60,665 nt of DNA from a virus (taxonomy: Duplodnaviria; Caudoviricetes), in the IMG/VR virus record IMGVR_UViG_3300042923_000927, positions 1-60,665 of that record; one strand, given 5' to 3'. Under the pieces are notes generated by a model. It was given only the letters and a program-made list of their open reading frames with translations. It did no database searches and was not told the origin of the DNA. This document shows, in pieces, positions 3,240-60,665 of the stretch. Positions within the stretch are counted from its first letter, which is position 1; each line of letters starts with the position of its first letter. The position numbers and the translations under genes are program-made.

Positions 3240-3660
3240 CGGGCGGTGCGTTTTTACCTGGTGCGCTATGGTATATATATCCTGTAAGGATATATACCAG
3301 ATGCACCAGTACACCAGACCCGTAAATGATAACTGGTGCAAAAACTGGTGCGAACTGGTGCGAGACTTGGTGCGAGTATTGGCGCGGCGTACTTAGAGGG
3401 GGGCTGTGGAAGATATTCACCTCAAACGGCCGCTGTTCAAATAAGTGCAAATTTGGCTGCACCACTTAGCAAAATGCTCGTTCTCGTATAACAATCCATG
3501 TTTTCCATATGGATCGTATTAGTGGTGCATCATTTTTCATTTTTCAAAAGCCGAATGCAAATCAGTGGCGCAAAAATGGTGCGGACTGGCGCGGAGAACT
3601 AATCCGTCCGAAATTTTTGGAGTTCCTTCATTATATAGCGCGTAATGCGCGCGTACGTAT
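3240..3660. other. Putative replication origin: hairpin plus TGGTGC/GCACCA iterons
   Basis: Non-coding switch region; TATATCC-TGTAA-GGATATA hairpin at 3273-3295; multiple (C)TGGTGC(G) repeats in both orientations. Confidence 0.55.
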
Positions 3661-4139: not shown

Positions 4140-4589
4140 ATGGCGGAAATAAAAGATCCAGCTGTGGTGTTCAGTAAAGAAGGGTGGAAGGCATTTCTCG
4201 GATTTATGTCCGAGTTGATTCCCAGTACGGTCAACAGACTTGAAGATCCATCGGAAATCGCAGCTCTCATTGCCGGATATGAGGAAAGGCATTCGGAACC
4301 GAAGAATGATCATTGGAGGGAAAAGGCCCAACCAGAAATTGATGCTGTGGTATCCATATTGAAGAAGAACCGGGTCCCCATGAAGCTGAAAGAAATCGCT
4401 TTAGAAATGAATGACATTCATAGAGACAGCTCATTGGAATGGGGAATGAATGCATCTACATGGTCAACCCGCATGGAAAAGGTCCGGAAGTATGAGCCAC
4501 GTATTCAAAAGGTTGGATATGGACTTTATGATTTGATGATCGACCCGGAAGAAAGATTTAAGGAATTAGAGGAGGCTGAATCACGATGA
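4140..4589 (+). CDS. Winged-helix DNA-binding protein, Rok-like C-terminus
   Basis: VVSILKKNRVPMKLKEI...MEKVRKYEPRIQKVGYGLY resembles the Rok winged helix. Confidence 0.5.
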   Translation: MAEIKDPAVVFSKEGWKAFLGFMSELIPSTVNRLEDPSEIAALIAGYEERHSEPKNDHWREKAQPEIDAVVSILKKNRVPMKLKEIALEMNDIHRDSSLEWGMNASTWSTRMEKVRKYEPRIQKVGYGLYDLMIDPEERFKELEEAESR

Positions 4590-4837
4590 TCGAGGCACCA
4601 CAGAAATCTACCGCTCAGCAATTCGATGAAGTAGTAATGACAACTCGGGCTTACTTCATTCTTACCTTTCCTGATGGCATGAGGGCAGCCGGAACACGGG
4701 AGATGATCTTCCGATATGTATGCAGTAAATGTGGTCACGTTCCACCTGTCATGATCTCGGCCGCTTTAAAAATCCTGAAGGATCGTGGAGCAATCGTATT
4801 TGAGAATCGGGTATGGTGGTTTATGGGGGATCGGTAA
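4586..4837 (+). CDS. Hypothetical protein (possible winged helix)
   Basis: ATGA-coupled to the upstream gene. Confidence 0.55.
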   Translation: MIEAPQKSTAQQFDEVVMTTRAYFILTFPDGMRAAGTREMIFRYVCSKCGHVPPVMISAALKILKDRGAIVFENRVWWFMGDR

Positions 4838-4883
4838 CAACATTACTATCCGCATATGATGGATAAAAAGGAGGTAATATGAA

Positions 4884-5120
4884 ATGAGAATCAAAAAACT
4901 GTTTTCTTTCTTTATCGTTCCATTATATGTCGCGCTGGTGATGGTAATTTCAGTATTCTTCAATGACATCGAGATTAAACTGCTGATCGGTTACTTGGGG
5001 CTGTCTTTTACGCCCCTTCTGACCGCCATCGCATTCGCGGTATATGACCGTTACAATATAAAGGAGGTTGAGGTATATGGGAAAGTTTTTGCAGTCACTA
5101 AACAGCCGGATAACCGATAA
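4884..5120 (+). CDS. Membrane protein, two TM segments
   Basis: AGGAGG RBS; hydrophobic sequence. Confidence 0.6.
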   Translation: MRIKKLFSFFIVPLYVALVMVISVFFNDIEIKLLIGYLGLSFTPLLTAIAFAVYDRYNIKEVEVYGKVFAVTKQPDNR

Positions 5121-5232
5121 TCAAATCAGAGCCTTCGTAATGGCAATTCTCATTCTGGGAGGAACCCTATCGCTATTCGTACTCATGGCCTATATTCTTC
5201 TAATCGGTAACCTCATTACTCTCTTTAATTAA
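5077..5232 (+). CDS. Small membrane protein (51 aa)
   Basis: Translated by hand, MGKFLQSLNSRITDNQIRAFVMAILILGGTLSLFVLMAYILLIGNLITLFN; GAGGT RBS. Confidence 0.55.
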   Translation: MGKFLQSLNSRITDNQIRAFVMAILILGGTLSLFVLMAYILLIGNLITLFN

Positions 5233-5313
5233 AAATCTTCATCAGGTATTTACGTAGTCCTTTCGTCCTTGTTATAATTAACTAAAACCATTCTGCCAGA
5301 AGGAGGTCTCCAC

Positions 5314-5490
5314 ATGGAAAACGAATTGACAGTAAAAGAATTATCAGACAGAACTGGAGTTGAGGTTCGGAAGATTATGTATCGAATCACCAAAACTGGT
5401 GAAATCAAAGGTCGCAAGGTAGGGTGGATATGGTTAGTGCCTCAGTCTGAGGTTGAAGTTTTGAAATCGCTTTATCCGAAGAAAGGGTAG
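5314..5490 (+). CDS. Excisionase/MerR-type HTH protein (58 aa)
   Basis: MENELTVKELSDRTGVEVRKIMYRI...IKGRKVGWIWLVPQSEV; AGGAGG RBS; promoter TTTACG-N18-TATAAT at 5249-5278. Confidence 0.75.
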   Translation: MENELTVKELSDRTGVEVRKIMYRITKTGEIKGRKVGWIWLVPQSEVEVLKSLYPKKG

Positions 5491-5501
5491 GAGGGAGGCA
5501 T

Positions 5502-7547
5502 TTGAGCCACATAGCCATCAAGTTTCTATCCGATGTTTGGAAGGAACAATGCAAAAAGGGAGATACGGTGTTTCTCGCCAGCAAGAACCGTACAACCGAT
5601 AAATGGAGGGATTTCTCCTTCACCTATGGAACCAAACTACAAGCTGAGTTAAAGGAATGGTTCTCTGATAATCCATCCAAATCGAATGATTTGTATTTCT
5701 GCCCTCTCCCGTTCAATGGAAGAAAAAGGGATCGTAACGCCGTCATCCGTACCCACTTCCTGTGGCAAGACCTTGACTATGCAAACCCAGACTATTTGGA
5801 TAAAACGGTAACCCCGACAATCGCATGGGAATCATCACCCGGAAGGTTCCAAGGGTTATGGAGATTGGACAAGCATTACGATCCATCCGAGATTGAGGAA
5901 TTGAACCGATCGCTTTCCAGATTCACAGGGGCAGATAAAGGCGGTTGGGATCTGACCCAGGTTCTCCGGATTCCTGGAACGCACAACAATAAATATAAGG
6001 AAAAGCCACAGGTACGATTTATGTATGATAACGGCATCGTATATCATGTGGATAAACTTAAATCCATCGTAGACGCTCCCTCCGAAGAAGATCCACCATG
6101 GGATGAGAACCATTCGGCCCTGAAGGAAATGGATGCTCAACGCATTCTGAAAAAGCACCACAAAAAGATACCCAGAAAAGCTTTAACAATGCTGATGGCC
6201 AAAACTGCCACCATGGGTAAACGATCCGATATTATATGGTATCTTACCAACAAACTAAATGAGGTTGGCCTCAATCCGCATGAGATTTACTCGCTTATGA
6301 AAGCCTCCGTATGGAATAAGTATAAAGACCGACATGATGAGGAGGAGAGGTTAAGAACCGAGATAGAGAAGGTAATAGAGGGGAAGTTTTCCGATGAACC
6401 GAAAGGGAAGACAAATCCTAACCCTGAACCGATGGGAGATTCGGAGGATTCAGGAGATGCAGAAGACGATGATGACGGAAGCTTCGGACTCACCCTTGAA
6501 TCCTATCATGAAGTCATGTCCTCAATATCGGCACATCCTGGGTGGCTCGTTGAAGGTTTCTGGGGTAGGAGAAGTCACGGTATTGTGGCTGGAGAACCGA
6601 AATCTTTCAAATCGACATACGTCATCGACTTGGCGGTATCCGTAGCATCAGGAGAGCCCTTTCTGGGGCAATATCCCGTTTTAGAGCCTGGTCCTGTGAT
6701 TTACATACAGAATGAAAATGCTGACTGGATCATTCGCGATAAAGTGGAGAAAGTAATAGCTAACCGGGGCTTAGGAGGGGAAGCTGTATATCGAGAGAAA
6801 AGCAATAAGCTGAAGGTCAGGTTTCCAAAAGACCTCCCGTTATATTTTATTAACCAACAAGGATATCAAATCAATGATCCTATCCACCAGCAAATATTGG
6901 AGAAGATCATCAAGCAATATAAACCTGTATTAATCGTACTTGACCCTCTTTACCTCATGTTCGATGGGGATATTAACTCGGCAAAGGAACTCATGCCTGC
7001 ATTAGTATGGCTCCTGGAGCTGAAGAATAAGTACAAAACCGGAGTCATGGTCATTCATCATTATAATAAGGGCGGAACGAATTCTAGGGGCGGTCAGCGG
7101 ATGCTCGGTTCTACCACACTGCATGGATGGATAGAGTCGGCATGGTATATGAAGCATCTTCCGAAAGACGATGATGAGGATGAAGATGATGGAGATATTG
7201 CAAAGGTGGCCGGAGTTCCATCCCCGATCATACTGGAGCGAGAATTCCGTTCGGCTGGAGGATTTCCTAGACTGGAATTGACCTTAACGATGGGGGAAAC
7301 TGGAAACCCGCTTTACAAGGTCGATGTCGAGAAATATAATCCGAAGAAGGGGAAAGAAGGATATGTTTCGGAGGATGATGTGGAGAATGACATTCTGAAT
7401 ATTCTCGAGATGTCCGGCAGGGTGGTTTCACAAAGGAAACTGGCCGATGATACTGGGGCTAGCCGGAGGATCATTAAGAAAATATTGGATAAGCTGTCAG
7501 AGCAGGGTAAAGTCAATCTCTCATCCGGGGGAGCCACCATTATCTAA
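5502..7547 (+). CDS. Primase-helicase (RepB-type primase plus RecA-family AAA helicase)
   Basis: WQDLD, ESSPGRFQGLW and VLRIPGTHN primase motifs; Walker A GEPKSFKS; Walker B IVLDP; IHHYNK; TTG start after GGAGG. Confidence 0.85.
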   Translation: MSHIAIKFLSDVWKEQCKKGDTVFLASKNRTTDKWRDFSFTYGTKLQAELKEWFSDNPSKSNDLYFCPLPFNGRKRDRNAVIRTHFLWQDLDYANPDYLDKTVTPTIAWESSPGRFQGLWRLDKHYDPSEIEELNRSLSRFTGADKGGWDLTQVLRIPGTHNNKYKEKPQVRFMYDNGIVYHVDKLKSIVDAPSEEDPPWDENHSALKEMDAQRILKKHHKKIPRKALTMLMAKTATMGKRSDIIWYLTNKLNEVGLNPHEIYSLMKASVWNKYKDRHDEEERLRTEIEKVIEGKFSDEPKGKTNPNPEPMGDSEDSGDAEDDDDGSFGLTLESYHEVMSSISAHPGWLVEGFWGRRSHGIVAGEPKSFKSTYVIDLAVSVASGEPFLGQYPVLEPGPVIYIQNENADWIIRDKVEKVIANRGLGGEAVYREKSNKLKVRFPKDLPLYFINQQGYQINDPIHQQILEKIIKQYKPVLIVLDPLYLMFDGDINSAKELMPALVWLLELKNKYKTGVMVIHHYNKGGTNSRGGQRMLGSTTLHGWIESAWYMKHLPKDDDEDEDDGDIAKVAGVPSPIILEREFRSAGGFPRLELTLTMGETGNPLYKVDVEKYNPKKGKEGYVSEDDVENDILNILEMSGRVVSQRKLADDTGASRRIIKKILDKLSEQGKVNLSSGGATII

Positions 7548-7559
7548 AGAATTTCGCAT

Positions 7560-7588
7560 TTTACATTTTACCATTCTTCTCATATAAT
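7560..7588 (+). promoter_or_regulatory. SigA-like promoter of the nucleotide metabolism operon
   Basis: TTTACA-N17-TATAAT. Confidence 0.75.
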
Positions 7589-7617
7589 AGACATATATAC
7601 AAAAAGGAGGAAGGTGC

Positions 7618-8007
7618 TTGTTAGTCATGATGCAACCGAGAGCAGTAGCCGTATTATTACACGATAAAAAAGGACGATGCGTTAGCAGGTCGCTTCACAG
7701 GTTTCAGGAGGACATGCATATAAAGCCCTTTCGGGATCTGGTGAAAAAAGTCTATCCCACCTCCGAAACGTTCATCGTCAATGTAAGGGAGGTGACAAAA
7801 CCCGACCCAGGAGCTATCAGGTTACGAGGACAGATGTGGTGCCCATACTGTGCTGCCTACCGTCATTACAACCCGGACACTTACTTAGGAATTAATCGAT
7901 GTGAGGTATGTGGCATATCTGACAAGGATTATCACGTACAAGACATGAATGGTCTATGGCCGAAACTAGATGGGGTACCAACCAGAAAGGAGAAAAAGAA
8001 GAAATGA
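7618..8007 (+). CDS. Zinc-ribbon protein
   Basis: WCPYC...RCEVCG; AGGAGG RBS. Confidence 0.7.
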   Translation: MLVMMQPRAVAVLLHDKKGRCVSRSLHRFQEDMHIKPFRDLVKKVYPTSETFIVNVREVTKPDPGAIRLRGQMWCPYCAAYRHYNPDTYLGINRCEVCGISDKDYHVQDMNGLWPKLDGVPTRKEKKKK

Positions 8008-8588
8008 ACCTAGAACAGAAACTCATGATCGTCGTTGAAGGGTTCGATAATACGGGGAAATCCACACTGATGGAGCAAATTCGGAGTTATACTGGGGTGT
8101 CTGGTCATGCTTCCAACGGTCGCCCACACAGTACTCAAGAAATGTTCAATCGTATGCATCATTATTTGGACTATCCGCATGTCTCCCTTCATGACCGCAT
8201 TCACTGTATTTCGGAAACGGTCTACGGACCAATTATTCGGGATCAATACACTTTTACTACGCCCGATGGAAGAGAAATTGAAAAAATCTTTAAGGCAACC
8301 CCCCACCTCATTATCTACTGCCGACCACCACGAGAGTACATATTTAATTACGGAGACCGCGGGCAGATGGAAGGCGTCATCGAGAATGATGTAAAATTGC
8401 TTCATGCATATGACCAAAAGATTCGCTATATGATCAACGAAGGCGGATGGAGGATCATGCTTCACGATTACACCGACTCGAACTCATTAAAACAAATTTT
8501 ATTTACTATCGGAGGTATTTTAAATGGACAGACTAACACAGGTATTCAATCGCCAATCTCAGCTGATGGACAAATACAGAAAGATTGA
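8004..8588 (+). CDS. P-loop (deoxy)nucleoside monophosphate kinase
   Basis: IVVEGFDNTGKST, then HDR..ISETVYGPIIR (thymidylate-kinase-like). Confidence 0.8.
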   Translation: MNLEQKLMIVVEGFDNTGKSTLMEQIRSYTGVSGHASNGRPHSTQEMFNRMHHYLDYPHVSLHDRIHCISETVYGPIIRDQYTFTTPDGREIEKIFKATPHLIIYCRPPREYIFNYGDRGQMEGVIENDVKLLHAYDQKIRYMINEGGWRIMLHDYTDSNSLKQILFTIGGILNGQTNTGIQSPISADGQIQKD

Positions 8589-9144
8589 GGCAGGAAACGG
8601 ATTCCACCTTAATGTTTCTTATCCAATTGACATTAATGACCGTTTCGGGCAAGCTCGCCTGAAAGATACCGCATGGCGCATGACTGAGGAGCTCGGGGAG
8701 TCATTAGATTCCTATTTGGACAATCCTGACGGGTTTCTGGATGAAATGGCCGACGTTATGCATTTCTTGGCTGAATTCACATTGCTAGCTGGATATGTCG
8801 CCCATGATGTGGTAGATTGGACGTATGGGGATAATTCCGACATCTTACTGACATTGTTTCTGGAAGCAGAGGCCTCGGGTTATGGGGATCAGTACGAGGA
8901 CCTGACCCATCAAACGGGGCTTATGGTTCAATCCCTGGCTATGACTTGCAATACACTTAAAAATAAGCCATGGAAGCAAACCCCAAAAGAAACAGATGTT
9001 AACCTGTTCAAATCCCGCCTCCAAAAAACCTGGTCGAACTATGCCGCTCTATGCATTACCGCAGGAATCAATGACGTTAAACTGTTCGAATGCTATTTGA
9101 AAAAAGCGGCGGTAAATGAGAATCGCCAGAATACGGGCTATTGA
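8524..9144 (+). CDS. All-alpha dNTP pyrophosphohydrolase (dimeric dUTPase/dCTPase, MazG superfamily)
   Basis: EELGE, DEMADVMHF, KNKPWKQ and C-terminal KAAVNENRQNTGY motifs. Confidence 0.8.
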   Translation: MDRLTQVFNRQSQLMDKYRKIEAGNGFHLNVSYPIDINDRFGQARLKDTAWRMTEELGESLDSYLDNPDGFLDEMADVMHFLAEFTLLAGYVAHDVVDWTYGDNSDILLTLFLEAEASGYGDQYEDLTHQTGLMVQSLAMTCNTLKNKPWKQTPKETDVNLFKSRLQKTWSNYAALCITAGINDVKLFECYLKKAAVNENRQNTGY

Positions 9145-9968
9145 TGGATAAAACTTTAGCACAGCATTGGGCAGACTTCATAGAGGAAATGGTATGTGCG
9201 GATGGTTACACCTGCCAGCTTCGGAAATTCGTTCAAGGTCAGACATGGGTCATTCCTGGAGATATGTGGACAGAAGGGAAGTCATTAACATTTGAACAAC
9301 TCGATTATACGGAAAAGAACAAAATGGCTCAGCTTATGCGCAACTATTACAATGCTGAATCCATCGCCGAGGCCAATACGAAGCTCCTCTCCCGTTTCGA
9401 CGGTAAAAAGTATCAAACTTCTGTGGCGGCATCCACAGTAGGTGGTCAGAAAAAGGGAGACAGCCAAGGTCATTGCATGAGAACTGTGGTTGTAACCCAT
9501 TTCACCAAATCGGTAGCTGGTCAGGACTGCATCACAATCGACGTCATGTATCGGAGTACGGAGTTGATTAAGAAGTTCGGGGCAGACTTAATCTATCTCC
9601 AAAAGCATCTTATTCCGAAAATCATCGAAGGCGTTCCTTACCCAATCAAGGAGGTCCGATTTTACTTTTCTAACCTGTTTGTATCGTCCCTTTTTCTTCC
9701 CATACTTTATTATATGAAGGATCCGGTTAAATTATTGGAAAAAATTCGACAAGCAGACCCGGAATTCTACAAACGGTGTTTTTCACAGAATCGGACATTT
9801 CTTGAAAAGGAATATGGCCACTTCAGTTATCGTACCAGACGGGAAATGCATCACCTCGCATTGACCCTGATGGAAAAAGGGGTAATTGATCGGAAGGCAT
9901 TAACCAAATACATTTCAAAAATGGGCAAAGACATTCCCGATATCGAAGGAGAAGATGACGATGAATAA
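9141..9968 (+). CDS. Divergent thymidylate-synthase-fold protein 1
   Basis: GHC (catalytic-Cys-like), then YRSTELIKKFGAD aligning with TS RSxD...N/D; located in the nucleotide cluster. Confidence 0.55.
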   Translation: MMDKTLAQHWADFIEEMVCADGYTCQLRKFVQGQTWVIPGDMWTEGKSLTFEQLDYTEKNKMAQLMRNYYNAESIAEANTKLLSRFDGKKYQTSVAASTVGGQKKGDSQGHCMRTVVVTHFTKSVAGQDCITIDVMYRSTELIKKFGADLIYLQKHLIPKIIEGVPYPIKEVRFYFSNLFVSSLFLPILYYMKDPVKLLEKIRQADPEFYKRCFSQNRTFLEKEYGHFSYRTRREMHHLALTLMEKGVIDRKALTKYISKMGKDIPDIEGEDDDE

Positions 9969-10233
9969 AATGGCCGAATTGAAAGGCTCAATGGAAAACC
10001 CTCCGAAACGAGGACTGGATTCACTTGCACAGGAATCGCTGGGTCGAGCAATGGACTTGAGAAAATCGGTAGAGGCATTGAAAGGGGACTTATTCGGGCA
10101 TTTTCCAAATGGTGAGCATGTAGGTAGTCCCGATGAGCCAATGGGAATTCAGGATAAGCTTATGATGACATGTGGGGTTCTTGGTTCAATTGAAAGGCTT
10201 CTCGCAGAAATCATAGATGGGACTCGTTCCTAA
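9961..10233 (+). CDS. Hypothetical protein
   Basis: ORF coupled to both neighbours. Confidence 0.6.
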   Translation: MNKMAELKGSMENPPKRGLDSLAQESLGRAMDLRKSVEALKGDLFGHFPNGEHVGSPDEPMGIQDKLMMTCGVLGSIERLLAEIIDGTRS

Positions 10234-11048
10234 TGGCGATTATCTTCAAAACGTTTGAAGCTGCAATACAGGATGCGAAGGACAGGCTAGCTTCCAATGG
10301 CAGACTGGTTCACACTGAAAAATGGCAAGGAATGGACATCCGGGATAATGATATGATGACCACCCATGAACTCATGAACCATTCCTTCACCTGCAAAATT
10401 GATTCTGATGTTGATGAACTGAAGCGGCAAATCAAACCTAATCTCCCATGGGCTGATGATCATTTTTTGGAACGAGTAGGTGAAGTCGGGCTAAATCCCG
10501 GTGTCCAATACGCCAACTGGCCTTATTACAAACGGCAATCCGATAATGACCAACATCGGGTAGAGCAAGGAAAATTCAGCCACACTTATATGGAACGCAT
10601 GTGGCCGAATAATACAGACTCGACTGAGTATAATGGATACCACAATTTCATGCATGGAATTCGATATCGGTATGGAGACTTGAACGACGTTCGCCGACTA
10701 CTTCAAAAGGAACCTTTAACTCGGCAAGCATTTCTGCCAATATGGTATCCGGAGGATACTGGATCGGTCCACGGAGGTAGAGTTCCATGCACACTCGGTT
10801 ACCACTTCATGATGAGAGAGAATAAGCTCCACATGTGGTACCCCATCCGGGCCTGCGATTTCAACAGACATTTCCGAGACGATATCTATCTCGCCTGCCG
10901 ACTCCTATTATGGATGTTGGATGAGCTTCGGGAATATGGGTCAATGAGTGGAGATTATATGTGGAACTCAGTTACTCCCGGCAACCTGACAATGCAAATC
11001 TACTCACTTCATGTATTCAAAAACGAGGTACCATTGTTAAGAAGGTGA
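10233..11048 (+). CDS. Thymidylate synthase / pyrimidine (hydroxy)methylase family protein
   Basis: EPLTRQAFLPIW, RVPCTLGYHF, IRACDFNRHFRDD and IYSLHVF motifs. Confidence 0.85.
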   Translation: MAIIFKTFEAAIQDAKDRLASNGRLVHTEKWQGMDIRDNDMMTTHELMNHSFTCKIDSDVDELKRQIKPNLPWADDHFLERVGEVGLNPGVQYANWPYYKRQSDNDQHRVEQGKFSHTYMERMWPNNTDSTEYNGYHNFMHGIRYRYGDLNDVRRLLQKEPLTRQAFLPIWYPEDTGSVHGGRVPCTLGYHFMMRENKLHMWYPIRACDFNRHFRDDIYLACRLLLWMLDELREYGSMSGDYMWNSVTPGNLTMQIYSLHVFKNEVPLLRR

Positions 11049-11118
11049 TAACATGTGGACATGCTGCGATGACCCAAACTGCGAATCCTGCGAAGGTACA
11101 GGAAGGGTAGGAGATTAA

Positions 11119-11559
11119 ATGAAACATCAAATCGGGGATCGGACTTATGTCCGGTCTCTCGGCATTAATGGAACTATCGAACACATCGACTGGGATAACA
11201 TTTATATTCCATGGCTCCACCCAGTACAGTTGCTGTTAGATTCTCCGTATGACGATACTGGACATTTAATGTTCAGAACTGTCCCGATGGACTTACTACC
11301 GATTTCAGAAGGGAATGAGCAACTTGTACGTAATAAAAGCACCGGACATGCACATCGCATGGAAGTCAATCAACCTCGCAATGACCGATCCAAACGTAGG
11401 ATACAACAAATTCGCGGTGGATCATTTCTTGAATCTGTTCGATACAATGATGGTGTCATCTTCACACAGATGTCCAGTCATAACACTCGAACAATTAGCA
11501 TATTCGCCGAAGAAGGCAAATCATCTATTGAGATCATATTTGGATCCGGGGGAGATTGA
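11119..11559 (+). CDS. Hypothetical protein (N-terminal SH3-like); 3' half overlaps the next gene
   Basis: AGGAG RBS; MKHQIGDRTYVRSLGINGTIEHI. Confidence 0.5.
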   Translation: MKHQIGDRTYVRSLGINGTIEHIDWDNIYIPWLHPVQLLLDSPYDDTGHLMFRTVPMDLLPISEGNEQLVRNKSTGHAHRMEVNQPRNDRSKRRIQQIRGGSFLESVRYNDGVIFTQMSSHNTRTISIFAEEGKSSIEIIFGSGGD

Positions 11560-12115
11560 CAAATGGTTAATGAAGTTGGTGGATACTTATGTTAAGATCG
11601 GACATATTGACTCGGACATTATCTTACAAACTAAACGAGAAAGCAAACATGGAAATGGACCTTGTCTTCTCGGCTTCAGTTTCCGAACTAGAGGAGAGGA
11701 TGGTCCTACATTATCCGCATTTAGTAGAGCTGCTGAACTCCCCCAAAAGTTCGGAGCGGACATCTTACTCGCCTCTGCTCTGGGCCAAATCATATGTGAC
11801 CGACTTGGATTTGAAACCATACGAGTCACCTGGTTCATCGCCTCATCCCACATCAAATCCCGCATGGCCAACATGTTCAGACTCTTCTACTATCCCGAAG
11901 AAAACATTACCTATGGTAATGAAGAATTCCAAAAGCATGTGGAGAAAGGATGGCAGAAGTTTTTCGTAGACCAACATCCGGTTACATATGTGAAGCTGGT
12001 TAAACTGCAGGAGCTATACAATCAAAAGGTCGGAATATCTCCACCTCCTGGAACGTCAACAGATGCTGACGGGTTCAAGCAATTCATTATAGATTATATG
12101 GAAAGGGGCAGTTAA
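11315..12115 (+). CDS. Divergent thymidylate-synthase-fold protein 2
   Basis: GPCLLGFSFR...SRAAELPQKFGAD...FIASSHI; shares KFGAD and L-x-R-x-Y motifs with 9141..9968. Confidence 0.6.
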   Translation: MSNLYVIKAPDMHIAWKSINLAMTDPNVGYNKFAVDHFLNLFDTMMVSSSHRCPVITLEQLAYSPKKANHLLRSYLDPGEIDKWLMKLVDTYVKIGHIDSDIILQTKRESKHGNGPCLLGFSFRTRGEDGPTLSAFSRAAELPQKFGADILLASALGQIICDRLGFETIRVTWFIASSHIKSRMANMFRLFYYPEENITYGNEEFQKHVEKGWQKFFVDQHPVTYVKLVKLQELYNQKVGISPPPGTSTDADGFKQFIIDYMERGS

Positions 12116-12116
12116 G

Positions 12117-12551
12117 ATGGAAGAACGCGTAAGCCGGGATCAAATGTTCGCAGGCATAGCGGCCGTCATATCGCTCCGGTCAACCTGTACCCGAGCAAAG
12201 GTTGGAGCTATCATCGTAAAGAACAATCGGATCATCTCCACAGGTTATGTCGGATCGCCTCCAGGAGAGGACCACTGTCTTGATCATGGATGCCTTATCG
12301 GAGAACATGGAGGATGTGTTCGGACGATCCATGCGGAAGTCAATGCGATTAACTTCGCTCGGCTGAACGGGGTAAACCTAAAAGGAGCGGAACTGTACTG
12401 CACGTTAAGCCCATGTGAAAACTGTGCAGAGGAGATAGTAAAAGCCGGAATAACGGTAGTACATTTCAACCACGTTTACAGGAAAACGGAAGGGATAGAG
12501 TTACTTTCAAAAGGCGGGGTAGGGATTAACCACATTCTATACAAGGAGTGA
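12117..12551 (+). CDS. dCMP deaminase (ComEB-like)
   Basis: RSTC.RAKVGA, TGYVG, HAEVNAI and PCENC zinc motifs. Confidence 0.92.
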   Translation: MEERVSRDQMFAGIAAVISLRSTCTRAKVGAIIVKNNRIISTGYVGSPPGEDHCLDHGCLIGEHGGCVRTIHAEVNAINFARLNGVNLKGAELYCTLSPCENCAEEIVKAGITVVHFNHVYRKTEGIELLSKGGVGINHILYKE

Positions 12552-12556
12552 ATTCA

Positions 12557-12970
12557 ATGGACAACGAAACGTTTAAGAAAAAGATATTCCAGAAAGTGAA
12601 AGGGATGACGTATTCGAAGTTCTGGGAATGGGTTAATCATGGTCACACAGGAGCATACCGATTCGCTCAAAAGCATTATCGGGAAGCAATGGAAATAGAG
12701 CTTCAACCGAAACAGCGAAAAGCTGTTGAAGACAAAGTCATCCAGATTCGGGAGCAATGGGACAATATCGACGAAGTGGACATCGAGGATACTGGAGTAT
12801 TGGATATGATGAAAGCTGAGGTCATGAAACATTGCCACATATGTAAAAGAGGAACCGGATCGGGAATAGAAACCAAATCCGGAATCGTTATCTGTTATGA
12901 CTGCATCGATGAATTAAAAGCTAAAGCTGAGGAAACAAAAATCTTGAACGATTCAACATCGAAGAATTAA
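12557..12970 (+). CDS. Hypothetical protein with C-terminal zinc finger
   Basis: CHIC...ICYDC; AAGGAG RBS. Confidence 0.65.
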   Translation: MDNETFKKKIFQKVKGMTYSKFWEWVNHGHTGAYRFAQKHYREAMEIELQPKQRKAVEDKVIQIREQWDNIDEVDIEDTGVLDMMKAEVMKHCHICKRGTGSGIETKSGIVICYDCIDELKAKAEETKILNDSTSKN

Positions 12971-13038
12971 GTACGTTGGTTGGGATAAAATTTTTGGTAT
13001 AATTAACTATGTTATCGCATATGAAGGGAGGAAAACTC

Positions 13039-15444
13039 TTGATTCCAATAGGTAACCCCGAATGTGAGAAATGTGGTCTATGTAGAACCGCATCCACAGT
13101 CAACATTATGGGAGTTGGTCCAATTCCGGCGAAGTTCATGGTCGTTACAGACATGCCGGGATGGGCAGAGGATGAGAAGGGAGTTCCATTAACGGGGAAA
13201 GGTAAAGACATGCTTTACTCCATGCTGAAAGAAGCGGGAATTAATCCGAAGGAGTGTTACTTTACTAATGCGGTCAAATGCCGTACCCCAGAAGGACGAG
13301 CACCTAAAGCTGCTGAAATGAAAGAATGTCGGGAGTATTTGGATGGGGAGTTAGCGGTAGTTAAACCCAAGTACGTATTGCTACTCGGGTCTACCTCTTA
13401 CAAGATGATGCTCGGCTCGGGAAAGATCACGGACGATCATGGGAAGATAGTTGAAAAGAATGGTGTTAAATACATGCCATCCTTTAGCCCATGGATCGCC
13501 TTCCGTGACCCGAAAAGGGCAGAGCCTTTGAAAGCTGACCTCATGAGATTCGGTAATATGTTGAAAGGTGTATCATCTGAGCTCCCTAAATTAAATCTCC
13601 GATATGTTAAGAATTTCAATGATGTGAATGAGATGTTGGATGAAATTTCCGAGAACACCGTCGTTAGTTTCGACGTCGAGACCACATCATTAAAACGTCA
13701 TTTCGGTCATATCAACTTGCTTGGGATCGGGTTACAGGATAGTCAGTGGATTCTTCCTCTCGAATGGCATGAAGGATCATTCAAAGGTAAGTCGGCGGTT
13801 ATTAGACAGATTCTGGAATTAATAGCTGAGGCATTGAAAGGAAAGAAAGTCGTCGGGCAGAACGGGAAGTTTGATAACCTGTGGCTTAAACATCATTACG
13901 GGGTTAAATTCCCCCTCTCATTCGATACCATGATCGCTGCTTATGCTCTTAATGAAAACCGCCCGACCAACCTGAATTATCTCACCAAAGTATTCTTAAA
14001 TTGGCCAGGATACGATATTAGCACGGAGGAAAAGGTTGGTAATACCTCATTAAAGAAACTGAGCACTTATCTAGGATATGACGTATATGGAACTCGGGCT
14101 TTGTATTTCATACTAAGGGATCTTCTCAAAAAGGATCGGCCCACAGCTCGGGTATTCAAATTGTTATTGATGCCAGCAGCCAGAGCCTATGAGAATATCG
14201 AAGAGGCCGGGATGTACATCTACCCGATGAGGTTTGATGAAGTGGATAAGCACATCAGTACCCAGATGGAGAAGGTATTGGCTAAACTTCACAAATTCAA
14301 AGTCATGAATTGGGGTTCGACGAAGCAAGTTGGAGAATTTCTTTTCGGGGATTTAAAACTCCCAATTCTGGAATCCACAAAGGGTGGATCGGCTTCTACT
14401 GGTGAATCTGTTCTCATGAGGCTTCGGGATCAACATCCATGCATAGATCTGTTATTGGAATACAAAGGATTAAAGCAACAGCATTCATTTTTCATAGCCG
14501 GATGGAAGAAGCGGATGCACAAAGGAATGCTTTATCCTTCATTCAAACTGGCTCATACGGTAACTGGAAGAACGTCATGTGAAGAACCGAACCTCCAACA
14601 AGTTCCACGGGATCCTGTCATACGTTCATTAATAGGAGCTCCGAAGGGATGGACTCACGTACAGCTTGACTATTCACAAGTTGAATTAAGGGTAGTAGCC
14701 ATGATCTCCGGAGAACCGACAATGAAATGGGTCTTCCAAACTGGTCAAGACATCCACACTAAAACAGCTCAGGACATCTCGGGAAATCCTAAACCGTCGA
14801 AGGAAGAACGTAAACAGGCAAAGGCTGTTAACTTCGGATTCGTTTACGGAATGGGTTGGAGGAAATTCAAGGACTATGCTCGAGATAAATACGGGGTCAT
14901 ACTTACTGATGCTCAAGCAAAGACATTCCGGAAGAGGTTCTTCGAGTCATACAGCGGTCTAATGAAATGGCATGCTAAGCAAAGGAAGATAGTCGGCATC
15001 AGCGGACAAGTTCGTAATCTGATTGGACGTCTACGGCGTTTACCGGAAATTTATTCACCGGATCAAGGAATGAAGGCTGAGGCAGAACGCCAAGCCATCA
15101 ACTCTCCTGTTCAATCGTTCGCTTCTGATATGACTTTAATGTCGATCATCCAAATTGACAAAGAAATTCCAAAGGAAGATGCTGTATGTTTCGGGTCAGT
15201 ACATGACGCTATCCTTTTCCGGGTCAGAGATGAGGTATTGGAAGAAACTGTGATGAAAATCAAATCCATTATGGAATCTCCGAAACTGTTGAAAACCTTC
15301 GGGGTTAATATGACGGTTCCCATCATAGCCGATATGGATATTGGTGATTGGGGTAAAGGGGTTTCATTGGATGAATGGAAGGCATGGAAGAAATCTAAAA
15401 CGAAGAAGGAACTGTATGATTGGGTAAAAGAAAATGCTTCATAA
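13039..15444 (+). CDS. polA: Family A DNA polymerase with N-terminal family-4 UDG-like domain and 3'-5' exonuclease
   Basis: CEKCGLC/TNAVKCR (UDG-4); FDVETT, QNGKFD and YDVY (exonuclease); TGRTS, PNLQQ, DYSQVELR, KAVNFGFVYG and VHDA (PolA); TTG start after GGGAGG. Confidence 0.95.
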   Translation: MIPIGNPECEKCGLCRTASTVNIMGVGPIPAKFMVVTDMPGWAEDEKGVPLTGKGKDMLYSMLKEAGINPKECYFTNAVKCRTPEGRAPKAAEMKECREYLDGELAVVKPKYVLLLGSTSYKMMLGSGKITDDHGKIVEKNGVKYMPSFSPWIAFRDPKRAEPLKADLMRFGNMLKGVSSELPKLNLRYVKNFNDVNEMLDEISENTVVSFDVETTSLKRHFGHINLLGIGLQDSQWILPLEWHEGSFKGKSAVIRQILELIAEALKGKKVVGQNGKFDNLWLKHHYGVKFPLSFDTMIAAYALNENRPTNLNYLTKVFLNWPGYDISTEEKVGNTSLKKLSTYLGYDVYGTRALYFILRDLLKKDRPTARVFKLLLMPAARAYENIEEAGMYIYPMRFDEVDKHISTQMEKVLAKLHKFKVMNWGSTKQVGEFLFGDLKLPILESTKGGSASTGESVLMRLRDQHPCIDLLLEYKGLKQQHSFFIAGWKKRMHKGMLYPSFKLAHTVTGRTSCEEPNLQQVPRDPVIRSLIGAPKGWTHVQLDYSQVELRVVAMISGEPTMKWVFQTGQDIHTKTAQDISGNPKPSKEERKQAKAVNFGFVYGMGWRKFKDYARDKYGVILTDAQAKTFRKRFFESYSGLMKWHAKQRKIVGISGQVRNLIGRLRRLPEIYSPDQGMKAEAERQAINSPVQSFASDMTLMSIIQIDKEIPKEDAVCFGSVHDAILFRVRDEVLEETVMKIKSIMESPKLLKTFGVNMTVPIIADMDIGDWGKGVSLDEWKAWKKSKTKKELYDWVKENAS

Positions 15445-15462
15445 TGCAAAAGAATTTATCTA

Positions 15463-15491
15463 TTTACAATATTGACCGTCTTACCTATAAT
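15463..15491 (+). promoter_or_regulatory. SigA-like promoter
   Basis: TTTACA-N17-TATAAT. Confidence 0.75.
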
Positions 15492-15524
15492 TAACTTATA
15501 TCCTATGAAGGAGGTGATAAAAAT

Positions 15525-18937: not shown

Positions 18938-19136
18938 GAGATATGGGTATGAAAGACGCCGTAAAACGTGGTTATATCAAAAAATGTACAGGAGAAAAAG
19001 TAGGGGCAGGTTTATGGCGGAATATGATTTGCGAGCCATTTATAAATGGACCACAGATGAACTGAGGAAGGAGCTCTATTCCATCGACACAGAAGGTTCC
19101 AGTTTAATGCGGGGCAGAAAGTGGTAGAGATTCCTG

Positions 19137-19165
19137 TTTACATTCACCTCCATATCTCTTATAAT
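19137..19165 (+). promoter_or_regulatory. Cassette promoter
   Basis: TTTACA-N17-TATAAT. Confidence 0.8.
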
Positions 19166-19190
19166 AAGGATATAACCAATTCGGGAGGTA

Positions 19191-19898
19191 ATGAAAATGA
19201 AAACTACTCAACTGTATGCATATGCAAAGCAATACGCTCAACAATACTGGGGCCTGACTTTTAATCTCCGCATCGTAGAAAATGGCCGCCTCGGGCGGGC
19301 TCGGGCACGATTCGTACGCCGGGCTGGTGAACAATACATCGATTTCAATCCAGAAATCCTGAAGCATGATTCGGAAGAAAATATCCTGATGACGTTGAAA
19401 CACGAAGTATGCCACTGGGCGGTATATAATACGAAGGGTCATCCATACCACAAAGACGGTCATCCATTCTTCGAATCGGAATTGGTTCGCATCGGGTCAC
19501 ATTCGACCGGAACGGTTGGAGCAACCGGAAATTACTACCATATATCCTGTTCAAAATGTGGTAGAGAAATGCCAATCAGCACAAGAGAATCAGTAGCCCG
19601 CAGAAGGTTAGGTTCCCAATATACCACTAAATGCTGTAAGGCCCCGACAGCATGGGTCGGATTGAAAACCATATCCCGCAAACAGGAAGAACCTAAAACG
19701 GCTGTAGCGGCCAACGTAGCGGCTATCCCGGCTCCTGTATCCGGAACCATGACCGCATCTGATGTGGCTGCAATGTTCAAACTCGATCCAAAAGTATTCC
19801 GTAAAAAGCTCCGCAATGCCGGGTATAAAAAGGAAGGATCGGGATGGACCTTCACCCAAGAAATGATAAAAGAAATAAAATCGAAATTGGGCCTATAA
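19191..19898 (+). CDS. SprT-like metalloprotease with zinc ribbon and C-terminal HTH-like domain
   Basis: NGRL.RA.ARF, LKHEVCH, CSKC...KCC; C-terminal MTASDVAAMFKLDPKVFRKKLR. Confidence 0.85.
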   Translation: MKMKTTQLYAYAKQYAQQYWGLTFNLRIVENGRLGRARARFVRRAGEQYIDFNPEILKHDSEENILMTLKHEVCHWAVYNTKGHPYHKDGHPFFESELVRIGSHSTGTVGATGNYYHISCSKCGREMPISTRESVARRRLGSQYTTKCCKAPTAWVGLKTISRKQEEPKTAVAANVAAIPAPVSGTMTASDVAAMFKLDPKVFRKKLRNAGYKKEGSGWTFTQEMIKEIKSKLGL

Positions 19899-21051: not shown

Positions 21052-21080
21052 TTTACATCTTGTGTGTTTTCTCTTATAAT
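21052..21080 (+). promoter_or_regulatory. Cassette promoter
   Basis: TTTACA-N17-TATAAT. Confidence 0.8.
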
Positions 21081-21117
21081 TAATCTATCAAATAAAACAT
21101 GAAAGAAGGAAACGACA

Positions 21118-21624: not shown

Positions 21625-21641
21625 GCCTTCTTTTCTTTGTG
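21611..21641 (+). terminator. Terminator overlapping the stop codon
   Basis: GGCCT-GAAAT-AGGCC-TTCTTTTCTTTGTG. Confidence 0.75.
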
Positions 21642-21648
21642 ATTTATG

Positions 21649-21677
21649 TTTACAATCACACATTCTTCTCTTATAAT
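21649..21677 (+). promoter_or_regulatory. Cassette promoter
   Basis: TTTACA-N17-TATAAT. Confidence 0.8.
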
Positions 21678-21710
21678 AGACATATAACCAATTAAACGGA
21701 GGCGGTAACG

Positions 21711-22540: not shown

Positions 22541-22573
22541 TGAATTATCTTTGCATATATGCGGAAGTTTCTA

Positions 22574-22602
22574 TTTACATGTCAACAAAATTCTTGTATA
22601 AT
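22574..22602 (+). promoter_or_regulatory. SigA-like promoter
   Basis: TTTACA-N17-TATAAT. Confidence 0.75.
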
Positions 22603-22633
22603 TTAATTAATCCAATAAAAGGAGGAGAGGAAG

Positions 22634-27312: not shown

Positions 27313-27998
27313 ATTATCAACCTCCATATGGCTCCGAGGAAGAATACGGTGAAGAGTCTTCCCAGCCATTTACCTCCAAACTGTCCGATCATTGGCCCAA
27401 TCATAACTCCTATGGCGCATATATCAACTGCCAGAATGATGATCTCTATTGAGTAACTGTTTATCACATCGATGAAGTATCCGAATCCATCTCCTACCAC
27501 TTTACCTGTTGGCTTTACCACCCACTCCATTTCTTTGTGGATGAATCCATCGGCGAACCTATTAACCTTTTCCATGAAACTCGGGTTATCTACCGCCCAG
27601 GTTTTGATGGTATCCACATACTCGGTAGGATCGACATATTGGCCGGATGAGTTCTTCATGGCAAGATGTAGATGTGGACCAGTTGAGTGCCCGGTATTAC
27701 CACTGTCACCCAGTTTCTGACCCATGGTAACATATTGATTGGCTTTTACCTTTACCTCTGATAGATGTCCGAATATGACCTCCTTTTCTTTACCACCTAT
27801 TTTCATGAATACTGCCTTACCTAAACCTCCCGTATCAATTACCTTCGATATGATGCCATTGGAGGGGCTTAAGATGTCGGTCCCAATTGGCATTGCGATG
27901 TCGACTCCGGTATGCGGTGTCACATGAACTGAGTCGATTGATCCGAATTGGGATGTGATCGTGTACACCGGACTACCGCTGATCTTTACGAGCATCAT
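27309..27998 (-). CDS. M23 peptidase with C-terminal TM helices
   Basis: HTGVD, GHLS and GNTGHSTGPHLH motifs. Confidence 0.9.
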   Translation of the reverse strand: MMLVKISGSPVYTITSQFGSIDSVHVTPHTGVDIAMPIGTDILSPSNGIISKVIDTGGLGKAVFMKIGGKEKEVIFGHLSEVKVKANQYVTMGQKLGDSGNTGHSTGPHLHLAMKNSSGQYVDPTEYVDTIKTWAVDNPSFMEKVNRFADGFIHKEMEWVVKPTGKVVGDGFGYFIDVINSYSIEIIILAVDICAIGVMIGPMIGQFGGKWLGRLFTVFFLGAIWRLII

Positions 27999-46944: not shown

Positions 46945-47110
46945 GGCGCGCTGGACTGGTGCAGTAATACATATATATCCTGTAAGGATATATGTAATTC
47001 GCACCACCGCACCAGACGCATCTAGCACCATCACCGGACAGGGATAGTTGAACTTCAGAAAATGGCAGAAGCCATTCAATGAGAGTTTGCACCACCCCTG
47101 CACCAGTTTG
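46945..47110. other. Second copy of the hairpin/TGGTGC element
   Basis: ATATATATCCTGTAAGGATATAT at 46971-46993 is identical to 3273-3295 and is flanked by CTGGTGC/GCACCAG. Confidence 0.7.
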
Positions 47111-60118: not shown

Positions 60119-60571
60119 TTATTCCTCCTCCTTATTAATTAGGATGTACTCTGGTTCGAGTGGCACCATGAATGGGAATGTCACAGGGACTGAGCTGCTC
60201 TTTCCTTGGGAGAACCATGTCTCACCTCCATCATCGGAGAATACTTTACCTTCAATGTAATGAGCGGTAGAATTATCATGGTTATACCGGAATACCCCAC
60301 TGCATCGGTGGTTCTGCTGTACTATTCCAATGGAGAGTCTGTATTCTGGGCCCCATTCGTCATCTTCCCCAGTTAGTGGGGTAATAGGTTTCCAAGCGAG
60401 AAGCCTTTTAATGAGGTCAATGGAGTATGGTGCCGTGAATCCGGTGTGATTTTGCTCAGCGAACAGTTTGACCACATCCAGGATGTTTTTGTGTGTTGCT
60501 GATGAGTCTTCCTCTCCGACTTTGTTTAAATGATCCAGTTCCTTACTTGCCCATTTTACCAATTCACTCAT
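60119..60571 (-). CDS. Hypothetical phage protein
   Basis: GAGGAGG RBS; F..Q.HTGF.A...KPITPLTGEDDEW. Confidence 0.75.
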   Translation of the reverse strand: MSELVKWASKELDHLNKVGEEDSSATHKNILDVVKLFAEQNHTGFTAPYSIDLIKRLLAWKPITPLTGEDDEWGPEYRLSIGIVQQNHRCSGVFRYNHDNSTAHYIEGKVFSDDGGETWFSQGKSSSVPVTFPFMVPLEPEYILINKEEE

Positions 60572-60665
60572 TTCTTATTCCTCCTCTTTTTGTTCTTGCC
60601 AGAAAGCCGTTAATGTTCCGAGAATCAGCGCCAAGGCATATACTGCCGGGATTACTATCCACAGG
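60539..60665. repeat. Terminal direct repeat, copy 2
   Basis: Identical to 1-127. Confidence 0.95.

Follow-up and report, generated by a model that had tools for sequence, protein, structure and literature searches.

Why would a tailed phage carry three proteins of the thymidylate synthase (TS) fold in a single block of replication genes, and on which nucleotide would they act? This question is raised by the 60,665-bp stretch of DNA analyzed here (the window), which is the entire IMG/VR virus record IMGVR_UViG_3300042923_000927. The record is classed as having direct terminal repeats (DTR), with a completeness rating of 100%; indeed, positions 1 to 127 recur exactly at 60539 to 60665 (127 bp), and the 60.7 kb of the window make up the whole genome of a tailed phage. 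Three open reading frames (ORFs), termed here A, B, and C in their order on the plus strand, lie with genes for a kinase, a nucleotide pyrophosphatase, a deaminase, and a DNA polymerase between positions 7618 and 15444 (Table 1). An earlier note made from the sequence had taken ORF B together with the ORFs starting at 9141 (A) and 11315 (C) to be TS-like, and had seen in the gene set (TS homolog, kinase, deoxynucleoside triphosphate [dNTP] pyrophosphatase, deaminase, and own polymerase) the layout of a pyrimidine-replacing phage. All of the genes that it named were found where it had placed them, on the plus strand, its assignments of the kinase, pyrophosphatase, and deaminase agreed with Pfam and PHROG matches, and the gene set does match that layout. 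The evidence presented below narrows the target from "a pyrimidine" to cytosine nucleotides. The reading that we favor, with a confidence somewhat short of even, is that the unit encodes a cytosine-directed C5-modification pathway following the logic of phages T4 and Xp12, in which A and C serve as extra active TS-fold enzymes.

Fold and family of ORFs A and C

ORFs A and C matched no Pfam or NCBIfam family, and both matched phrog_34294, to which no function is assigned. They are paralogs, with 29% identity over 104 amino acids in BLASTP (E value of 2e-7) and an hhalign probability of 96.7 between their family profiles. AlphaFold2 models built on family alignments of 8 (A) and 9 (C) sequences had predicted local distance difference test (pLDDT) values of 90.1 and 87.0 and predicted template modeling (pTM) scores of 0.88 and 0.87, respectively. 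When the models were compared with the PDB by Foldseek, every listed row was a TS-superfamily chain, with E values of ≤0.001 in 74 rows for A and 45 rows for C. The modeled structures thus confirmed the TS alpha/beta fold of A and C, as the earlier note had supposed. In the models, the core fold spans residues 2 to 195, and the last 70 to 80 residues form a family-specific helical extension.

The matches listed by VIA-align consisted only of TS-superfamily chains, with Z scores of 10 to 14 over about 175 to 187 residues. ORF A scored 14.3 to 9iqc (177 amino acids, 3.3 Å), 14.1 to MilA, and 13.1 to ThyA, and ORF C scored 13.9 to 9iqu (187 amino acids, 3.9 Å), 13.1 to MilA, and 10.9 to TS. The nearest solved structures to both, 9iqu and 9iqc, are those of the dCMP hydroxylase of phage HY126. 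Cytosine-type enzymes (9iqu/9iqc and MilA) outscored dUMP-type TSs by 2 to 3 Z units in the case of C, whereas the difference of about 1 Z unit in the case of A is a tie. In BFVD, the best matches of the C model were uncharacterized phage proteins (TM score of about 0.7), followed by viral TSs and dCMP hydroxymethylases; the ESM Atlas returned only viral "hypothetical protein" clusters, plus TSs by structure.

Sequence searches gave no such connection. With A or C as the query, phmmer returned nothing relevant; a 17-sequence A/C profile found one chance helical match and no relevant hit among PDB sequences; and a 160-sequence A/C profile, aligned by hhalign in forced global mode, had probabilities of ≤0.2 against E. 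coli ThyA and T4 gp42. In local mode, the probability between the A/C and B profiles was about 1%. Since the sequence profiles of A/C reach no TS significantly, it is the fold alone that links A/C to TS. The family itself is large: a profile search of 1.84 billion representatives recovered 526 relatives (526 clusters at 50% identity) at E values of ≤1e-3, 284 at ≤1e-10, and 93 at ≤1e-30. A search of viral contigs with the C family for related loci found none. In the literature searched, which left most subscription journals outside, we found no description of the A/C family or of paired TSs.

Two members of the family carry odd labels in GenBank. Gene 0021 of Clostridium phage CPAS-15 (positions 4202 to 4951 of locus L007) is annotated as "colanic acid biosynthesis glycosyltransferase," and ORF027 of Yersinia phage P744 (positions 5010 to 5843 of locus L003) as "pyrimidine hmase synthase." Labels of the "Pyrimidine hmase (synthase)" type come from the CDD superfamily name TS_Pyrimidine_HMase and not from characterization.

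ORF B and the cytosine nucleotide hydroxymethylases

ORF B is a divergent TS homolog. It scored 19.4 bits against the Pfam TS family PF00303, under the gathering cutoff of 24.3, and was the only ORF found when the genome was searched with PF00303 (20.6 bits). With a profile of 40 B-family sequences, the best match among PDB sequences was MilA (E value of 7e-6), and TS and T4 dCMP hydroxymethylase were also matched; by hhalign, the probability of the B-family profile was 90.2 against T4 gp42 versus 28.3 against E. coli ThyA. Judged by these comparisons, ORF B is nearer to the CMP/dCMP hydroxymethylases (MilA and T4 gp42) than to ThyA, and its sequence places it in the TS/pyrimidine hydroxymethylase superfamily (CDD cl19097). 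The B family comprises at least 2725 clusters at 90% identity. One member, P0191 (409 amino acids, from an 18.9-kb contig), has a B-family TS homolog (residues 1 to 270) fused to a dCMP deaminase (residues 277 to 383); it is a single sequence of its kind and may be an assembly or frameshift artifact.

Active-site residues and the substrate code

In all 40 B-family sequences, Cys186, Arg206, Cys208-Asp209, Asp216-Asp217, Arg183, and Arg164-Gln165 are invariant. Alignments of ORF B with Lactobacillus casei TS, MilA, and T4 gp42 place Cys186 at the nucleophilic Cys, Arg206 at Arg166, and Asp209 at Asp169. In those with MilA and T4 gp42, Asp217 corresponds to T4 Asp179 and E. coli Asn177. Arg183 stands at the position of T4 Asp145 and E. 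coli Leu143, and Arg164-Gln165 at that of E. coli Arg126-Arg127.

The corresponding residues are Cys111, Arg137-Ser138, Glu140, and Asp148 in ORF A and Cys117, Arg138, Glu141, and Asp149 in ORF C, together with a family-invariant Lys and Tyr (Lys60 and Tyr68 in A, Lys67 and Tyr75 in C). Among 160 family representatives of at least 200 amino acids, the Lys, Tyr, Cys, Arg, and Asp occur in 160 and the Glu in 156. The spacing of the Arg, the Glu at +3, and the Asp at +11 is that of ThyA Arg166, Asp169, and Asn177, without a gap, and the top local alignment of the A/C and B profiles, nonsignificant by itself (probability of about 1%), pairs the same Arg, Glu, and Asp. The equivalence of the A/C Cys and Arg to Cys146 and Arg166 thus rests on motif spacing, on strand order in the models, and on this nonsignificant local alignment. 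By alignment in B and by motif spacing in A and C, all three proteins keep the nucleophilic Cys and carry Asp at the position of Asn177 in dUMP-specific ThyA, in agreement with the earlier note. The Asp at 177 points to a cytosine-type substrate: replacement of Asn177 by Asp in ThyA switches its preference from dUMP to dCMP, as stated in a study of this residue code (PMC13326640). Besides, the invariance of the Lys, Tyr, Cys, Arg, and Asp in the A/C family indicates catalysis rather than a structural role, and A and C would accordingly be active enzymes.

The remaining positions depart from known types. Position 143 is Arg in B, Gln in A, and Asn in C (in A and C, the residue three before the Cys), and position 169 is Asp209 in B, Glu140 in A, and Glu141 in C. 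Mapped by eye, A and C are without the ThyA Arg126/Arg127 pair, at whose place C has an invariant Asp99-Ser100-Asp101 motif, and their helical subdomain is shorter. In the same study (PMC13326640), Leu at position 143 goes with methyl transfer versus an acidic residue with hydroxymethyl transfer, and the change of Asp169 to Asn marks the 5-hydroxy-dCMP synthases. Measured against these marks, none of A, B, and C has the Asn177, the Arg126-Arg127 pair, or the hydrophobic residue at 143 of dUMP-specific ThyA (EC 2.1.1.45); all three have the Asp177 of T4-type dCMP hydroxymethylases but not an acidic residue at 143; and none has the Asn169 of the 5-hydroxy-dCMP synthases (RB69 gp48 and AfhB).

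Spread and gene order of the module

By tblastn, the B family was found in 120 cultured-phage records (Gordonia, 72; Clostridium, 10; Mycobacterium, 9; Serratia, 6; Pseudomonas, 5; Streptomyces, 4; and others), A relatives in 28 records, and C relatives in 48. In the window and in ten other B-family loci, the gene directly upstream of B matched the hidden Markov model (HMM) of the A/C family (11/11). Seven of the ten had been found through A, C, or A and B matches and are therefore biased toward carrying an A/C gene. The loci of Muddy, KimJongPhill, and Shrew were chosen by B matches only, tblastn with A or C having missed them, and they still carry an A/C ORF (for Muddy gp47, the hhalign probability was 95.8).

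The conserved order is helicase, kinase, pyrophosphatase, A/C, B, (deaminase), PolA, PD-(D/E)XK nuclease, and ATPase. Each of the 11 loci shows the part of it from the kinase to PolA, with the deaminase as an optional member. It is common to phages of Actinobacteria, Firmicutes, and Proteobacteria, for example, phages of Mycobacterium (Muddy), Gordonia, Pseudomonas, Serratia, and Clostridium, and its recurrence in unrelated phages puts the arrangement far beyond chance. The module is thus a widespread, conserved phage module and not unique to this genome. The earlier note had treated the layout as special to the window, and this part of its interpretation falls with the 120 B-family records and the 11 of 11 loci; the parts concerning fold, Cys and Asp residues, and layout stand. 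A published account (PMC6509536) states that 22 proteins are common to phage Serbin and the 9g/CAjan group, whose queuosine-type cluster is missing from Serbin; this is a weak hint that a replication scaffold of the Serbin and 9g/CAjan kind carries interchangeable DNA modification cassettes.

The second A/C gene

What is unusual in the window is a second full-length gene of the A/C type, detected by the family HMM in only 2 of the 11 loci, namely, the window and a metagenome relative (locus L004), whose protein at the C position is 43% identical to ORF C. With both copies retained at 43% identity, there is reason to think that having two is important. One more contig, of 34.9 kb, probably has two A/C genes, relatives of A, B, and C all being recorded for such a contig. 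Pseudomonas phage Lebethron has at the C position a truncated relative of 175 amino acids (CDS0042; positions 6759 to 7286 of locus L001), which has kept the Cys and the Arg-Ser and lost the KFGAD-type motif (hhalign probability of 92.7). Two further candidates for third copies, Tolls gp46 ("lysin B") and Muddy gp45, proved not to be A/C relatives.

A quick maximum-likelihood tree of 76 A/C members, rooted at the midpoint, divided the family into two clades (SH-aLRT of 99). ORF A falls with Pseudomonas, Serratia, Yersinia, and Brevundimonas copies, and ORF C with actinophage and Clostridium copies and with both copies of L004. Members of both clades occur in the position 5' of B, so either clade can fill it.

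Two observations concern L004 itself. An inserted DNA methyltransferase gene (phrog_56, E value of 7.5e-61; positions 6653 to 7474) separates the kinase gene of the module there from the pyrophosphatase gene. Besides, L004 and locus L005 represent one region twice, at a distance of 51 kb within a single 98.5-kb contig that is probably a concatemer assembly.

Proposed pathway and its alternatives

Most of the pyrimidine modifications known from phages (5-methyl-, 5-hydroxymethyl-, and 5-hydroxypyrimidines) begin with a TS-fold enzyme. In the cytosine-directed pathway that we favor, the genes between 7618 and 15444 would act as a single unit, redirecting the pyrimidine pool and supplying the polymerase that the phage itself encodes. 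The pyrophosphatase of the dimeric dUTPase family would convert dCTP (and dUTP) to monophosphates, and ORF B would then transfer a one-carbon unit onto C5 of dCMP by means of Cys186. The P-loop kinase, proposed to phosphorylate the modified deoxynucleoside monophosphate (dNMP), and a host nucleoside diphosphate kinase would raise the product to the triphosphate, which the polymerase, a PolA fused to a uracil-DNA glycosylase (UDG), would incorporate into DNA; the deaminase would divert part of the (modified) dC nucleotide pool to the thymidine series. A and C would bind a cytosine-type nucleotide with addition of the Cys at C6, most likely for a further step on the product of B or for a second product. 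Direct observation covers the genes present, their folds and motifs, the synteny, and the sizes of the families; from these, we infer the substrates (those of the kinase and pyrophosphatase included), the product, the order of steps, and the modification of virion DNA itself.

The gene neighborhood argues for this pathway. The closest experimental work is a virome study from New England Biolabs (bioRxiv 10.1101/2024.12.05.627091), in which dCMP deaminase genes lay ≤3 kb from a TS homolog in 104 of 149 cases on contigs scored as cytosine modified versus 17 of 277 on unmodified ones, with NTP pyrophosphatase and PolA as other common neighbors; five of seven such TS homologs made 5-methyl-dCMP, and the deaminases were proposed to turn 5-methyl-dC nucleotides into dT. 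The window has this Xp12-type neighborhood, with an Asp177 TS homolog ≤3 kb from a PF00383 deaminase and both PolA and an NTP pyrophosphatase close by; for this reason, we prefer a pathway directed at cytosine, in which B would transfer the one-carbon unit. The B-deaminase fusion of P0191, the occurrence of deaminase relatives in the same module of other phages, and the A/C gene 5' of B in 11 of 11 loci speak for it as well.

Several points weigh against it. The published residue code fits none of A, B, and C, position 143 being neither hydrophobic nor acidic and Asn169 being absent; the Asp177 of A and C is placed by motif spacing in a family whose sequence profiles reach no TS significantly, and the Glu at position 169 is not kept in actinophage copies (Muddy gp47). 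The dUTPase family, the dCMP deaminase, and UDG-PolA fit a uracil-avoiding, thymidine-directed reading equally, and UDG-PolA fusions of the SPO1/SP-15 kind accompany T-modified genomes (PMC13697223). No deaminase is annotated in the locus shown for Muddy, Strzyga, or CPAS-15, all of which have the A/C and B pair. The carriers are routinely sequenced phages, the GenBank product names of B and its neighbors are those of thymidylate synthesis, and, in the literature searched, no phage with the module is reported to have modified DNA, for which reason the alternatives set out below retain considerable weight. Finally, the interchangeability of the two clades weakens a strict two-step order of A and then C and allows partial redundancy.

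The module may instead simply supply thymidylate, with canonical virion DNA, which we regard as possible but on balance doubtful. B, the deaminase, the kinase, and the dUTPase would then boost dTTP, by way of dUMP or of 5-methyl-dCMP deaminated to dTMP, UDG-PolA and the dUTPase would exclude uracil, and A/C would be accessory (regulatory, scaffolding, or redundant). Such a role accords with the names given in GenBank to B (thymidylate synthase) and its neighbors (thymidylate kinase, dUTPase, and dCMP deaminase), and genome announcements read the genes as thymidine metabolism (PMC6509536; Azira abstract). It also accords with the lack of reports of modified DNA, with the scans of ORFs elsewhere in the genome, which recognized no postreplicative modification enzyme, and with P0191, whose fusion suits a two-step route to dTMP too. 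Against it, A, B, and C have in place of Asn177 an Asp, by which ThyA is switched from dUMP to dCMP (PMC13326640), and B is close to MilA and T4 gp42 rather than to ThyA. Synthesis of dTMP would also not call for as many as two or three genes of the TS fold whose catalytic-type residues are fully conserved. A further point against it is the firm association of a dedicated kinase and a dedicated pyrophosphatase with the polymerase, which is the signature of base replacement. If the module were an ordinary dTMP supply, the A/C family would still need explaining.

TS active sites are built across the dimer, and an A/C-type protein might accordingly be an obligate partner subunit of B, with C as an alternative or additional partner; we consider such a heteromer improbable. 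The A/C gene adjoins B in all 11 loci, and, as annotated or ORF called, its stop overlaps the start of B in 7 of them (Lebethron, Tolls, P744, KimJongPhill, Serbin, Strzyga, and L004), although tight packing and stop/start overlaps are ordinary in phage operons. By eye, A/C is without the Arg126/Arg127 pair that completes the partner site, at which B keeps its invariant Arg164, and the truncated 175-amino-acid third copy of Lebethron has lost its KFGAD-type motif, as could be expected of a noncatalytic partner. Yet A/C keeps a catalytic-type residue set of its own in 160 of 160 representatives, beyond what a protein serving only as a partner would require. Fusions of A/C with B were absent from the proteins listed, which is a weak point against the heteromer since the length windows of the search limited the view. 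Prediction of a complex of B and A gave an ipSAE of 0.00 in both runs, made without controls, and was counted neither for nor against binding.

A thymidine replacement of the SPO1 kind, in which the deaminase would yield dUMP, a TS-fold enzyme 5-hydroxymethyl-dUMP, and the pyrophosphatase and UDG-PolA would remove dUTP/dTTP and stray uracil, respectively, is very unlikely: the module does hold a dCMP deaminase, a dUTPase-family pyrophosphatase, and a thymidylate-kinase-type kinase, and SPO1-like and SP-15-like phages, whose DNA is T modified, are described as having UDG-PolA fusions that are catalytically intact (PMC13697223), but position 177 is Asp and not Asn in A, B, and C (in A and C by motif spacing), the scans of other ORFs recognized no 5-hydroxymethyl-dU DNA kinase or aGPT-Pplase-type gene, and the nearest structures and sequences are those of cytosine nucleotide enzymes.

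Within the cytosine-directed pathway, a bolder extension can be stated, which we hold to be rather unlikely. A/C may be a new class of TS-fold enzymes that takes a cytosine nucleotide already substituted at C5 through a second reaction dependent on Cys, for example, by re-forming an exocyclic methylene intermediate from the product of B and trapping it with another nucleophile, so that a novel modified cytosine would be made wholly at the mononucleotide level, with no postreplicative enzymes. If so, this phage, with one copy of each deep clade, would perform a two-step hypermodification or make two different bases. Given that the A/C and B pair is present in more than 100 cultured phages, one of them the therapy phage Muddy, the base would be widespread and overlooked.

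The divergent TS homolog and the phage replicase are thus always accompanied by another TS-fold family, which is large and borne by phages; if catalytic, this family would add a new reaction or base to the phage repertoire and change the "thymidylate synthase" annotation in many cultured phages, including therapeutic and teaching-collection phages.

Other genes of the module and genome setting

The first ORF of the unit is kept at the same position in L004 (5697 to 6056, same phrog_28450, E value of 2.9e-15). The kinase matched no Pfam family above noise and no NCBIfam family, and its matches to PDB sequences are confined to the P loop. The pyrophosphatase scored 32.4 bits against PF08761 (cutoff, 22.9) and matched phrog_12184 with an E value of 3.7e-34; its C terminus is weakly similar to the T4 dCTPase/dUTPase gp56 (E value of 0.003). 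No family in Pfam, PHROGs, or NCBIfam was found for the 92-amino-acid ORF between A and B. E values for the deaminase were 6.1e-22 (PF00383), 3.2e-15 (MafB19-deam), and 1.1e-49 (phrog_174), and its nearest phage relatives occupy the same module in other phages. The polymerase matched PF03167 (1.7e-24), PF01612 (3.7e-15), PF00476 (2.2e-82), and TIGR00758 (7.8e-33). PHROG and Pfam scans of 30 further ORFs recognized no glycosyltransferase, as the earlier note had reported, and no other postreplicative modifier.

Table 1. Positions of the features of the module and of other features of the window
Feature	Positions	Strand	Basis and remarks
Promoter-like site TTTACA-N17-TATAAT	7560..7602	+	Just 5' of module; direct-repeat families D1 and D2
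129-amino-acid ORF	7618..8007	+	phrog_28450, E 6.9e-12; first gene of unit
P-loop dNMP (thymidylate-kinase-like) kinase	8004..8588	+	phrog_761 "thymidylate kinase," E 1.6e-17
All-alpha NTP pyrophosphatase, dimeric dUTPase/dCTPase family	8524..9144	+	Pfam dUTPase_2 PF08761; phrog_12184
ORF A, predicted TS-fold protein, clade I of A/C family	9141..9968	+	Model and phrog_34294; acidic C-terminal tail
92-amino-acid ORF	9955..10233	+	ORF call; between A and B, overlaps both
ORF B, divergent TS homolog	10233..11048	+	phrog_160 "thymidylate synthase," E 1.2e-23
ORF C, predicted TS-fold protein, clade II of A/C family	11315..12115	+	Model and phrog_34294
Zinc-dependent dCMP-type deaminase (ComEB-like)	12117..12551	+	PF00383, MafB19-deam, phrog_174
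140-amino-acid ORF	12548..12970	+	Between deaminase and polymerase; Pfam/PHROG matches weak
Family-4 UDG domain, 3'-5' exonuclease, and family-A DNA polymerase (PolA)	13009..15444	+	Pfam, NCBIfam
ORF with Rok-type winged-helix domain	4140-4589	+	PF23159, E 8.6e-10
852-amino-acid protein	24811-27369	-	phrog_5156 alone (function unassigned), E 4.7e-164; between replication and lysis/structural blocks
ParB-like "partition protein"	28693-29514	-	phrog_691, E 8e-37
641-amino-acid protein	51396-53321	-	N-terminal hydrolase/phosphodiesterase type (phrog_13624, E 1.7e-69); C-terminal virion structural (phrog_10356)

In PHROG scans, the terminase, portal, major head, tail, and lysis genes lie on the minus strand and the replication block on the plus strand. 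Copies of the promoter-like site in Table 1 recur at 15453-15523, 19127-19197, 21052-21094, 21639-21709, 22567-22625, 29692-29762, and 30977-31047, mostly with a GGAGG ribosome-binding site next in line, and from their consensus alone these sites are likely promoters. The next plus-strand copy after that at 7560-7602 is the one at 15453-15523; genes 7618 to 15444 therefore look like one transcription unit. The set of TTTACA-N17-TATAAT and GGAGG elements resembles Firmicutes-type expression signals, which hints at the host, and the Rok-type domain is a second hint, of a Bacillus-like host. In addition, a 62-nucleotide element occurs at 3258-3319 and 46956-47017 in copies that are 76% identical, with a long AT-rich palindrome between CTGGTGC...GCACCAG arms.

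Comparison with known systems

In the 5-methylcytosine modules of the type of Xanthomonas phage Xp12 and PaMx74, a dCMP methyltransferase homologous to TS and a "dCMP" deaminase selective for 5-methylcytosine stand next to an NTP pyrophosphatase and PolA. The module of the window resembles them in having an Asp177 TS homolog within about 1 kb of a PF00383/MafB19-type deaminase, and an NTP pyrophosphatase, a kinase, and a PolA with exonuclease in the same cluster, the profile given in the virome study (bioRxiv 10.1101/2024.12.05.627091). It differs in that B has Arg at 143, the pyrophosphatase is of the dUTPase_2 family and not PRA-PH, and B is not closely related to their kind of TS, the AXL3-type TS being no more than 24% identical to it over 111 aligned amino acids. 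The ten organism names listed for the 120 B-family matches include no Xanthomonas record. The DNA of Stenotrophomonas phage AXL3 resists 35 of 37 restriction enzymes (PMC7504290), and its gene row looks similar. It was nevertheless rejected as the same system, its gp29 being unrelated to A/C, its methyltransferase unrelated to that of L004, and its TS only distantly similar to B as just given; AXL3, which was the only phage with another kind of TS taken for comparison, is without an A/C-type gene.

Like the flavin-dependent 5-hydroxy-dCMP synthases (RB69 gp48, DLP3 gp80, and HY126 AfhB; 9iqu and 9iqc), A and C are short TS-fold proteins with Asp177. Unlike them, A, B, and C show no change of Asp169 to Asn, the identity is 10 to 15%, and no arabinosyl- or glycosyltransferase genes were recognized. 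MilA, the CMP 5-hydroxymethylase of mildiomycin synthesis (5b6d and 5jnh), is the best PDB match of the B family and among the top structures for A and C (Z scores of 14.1 and 13.1), although it is a bacterial enzyme of an antibiotic pathway, with a ribonucleotide as its substrate and Asp at 143.

The dNTP synthesis set of T4 comprises the dCMP hydroxymethylase gp42, the dCTPase/dUTPase gp56, the dNMP kinase gp1, the dCMP deaminase cd, and the TS td. The module differs from it in that position 143 is not acidic, no glucosyltransferase was recognized, the polymerase is of family A and not family B, and the extra TS-fold genes are not ThyA-like. The proposed logic would nonetheless be that of T4, that is, to destroy a canonical dNTP, modify the monophosphate by a TS-fold enzyme, rephosphorylate it, and copy DNA with the phage's own polymerase. 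Besides, both genomes have more than one TS-fold gene, the pyrophosphatase weakly shares a C-terminal motif with gp56, and the B profile matches gp42 (hhalign probability of 90.2) with the Cys and Asp179 in register.

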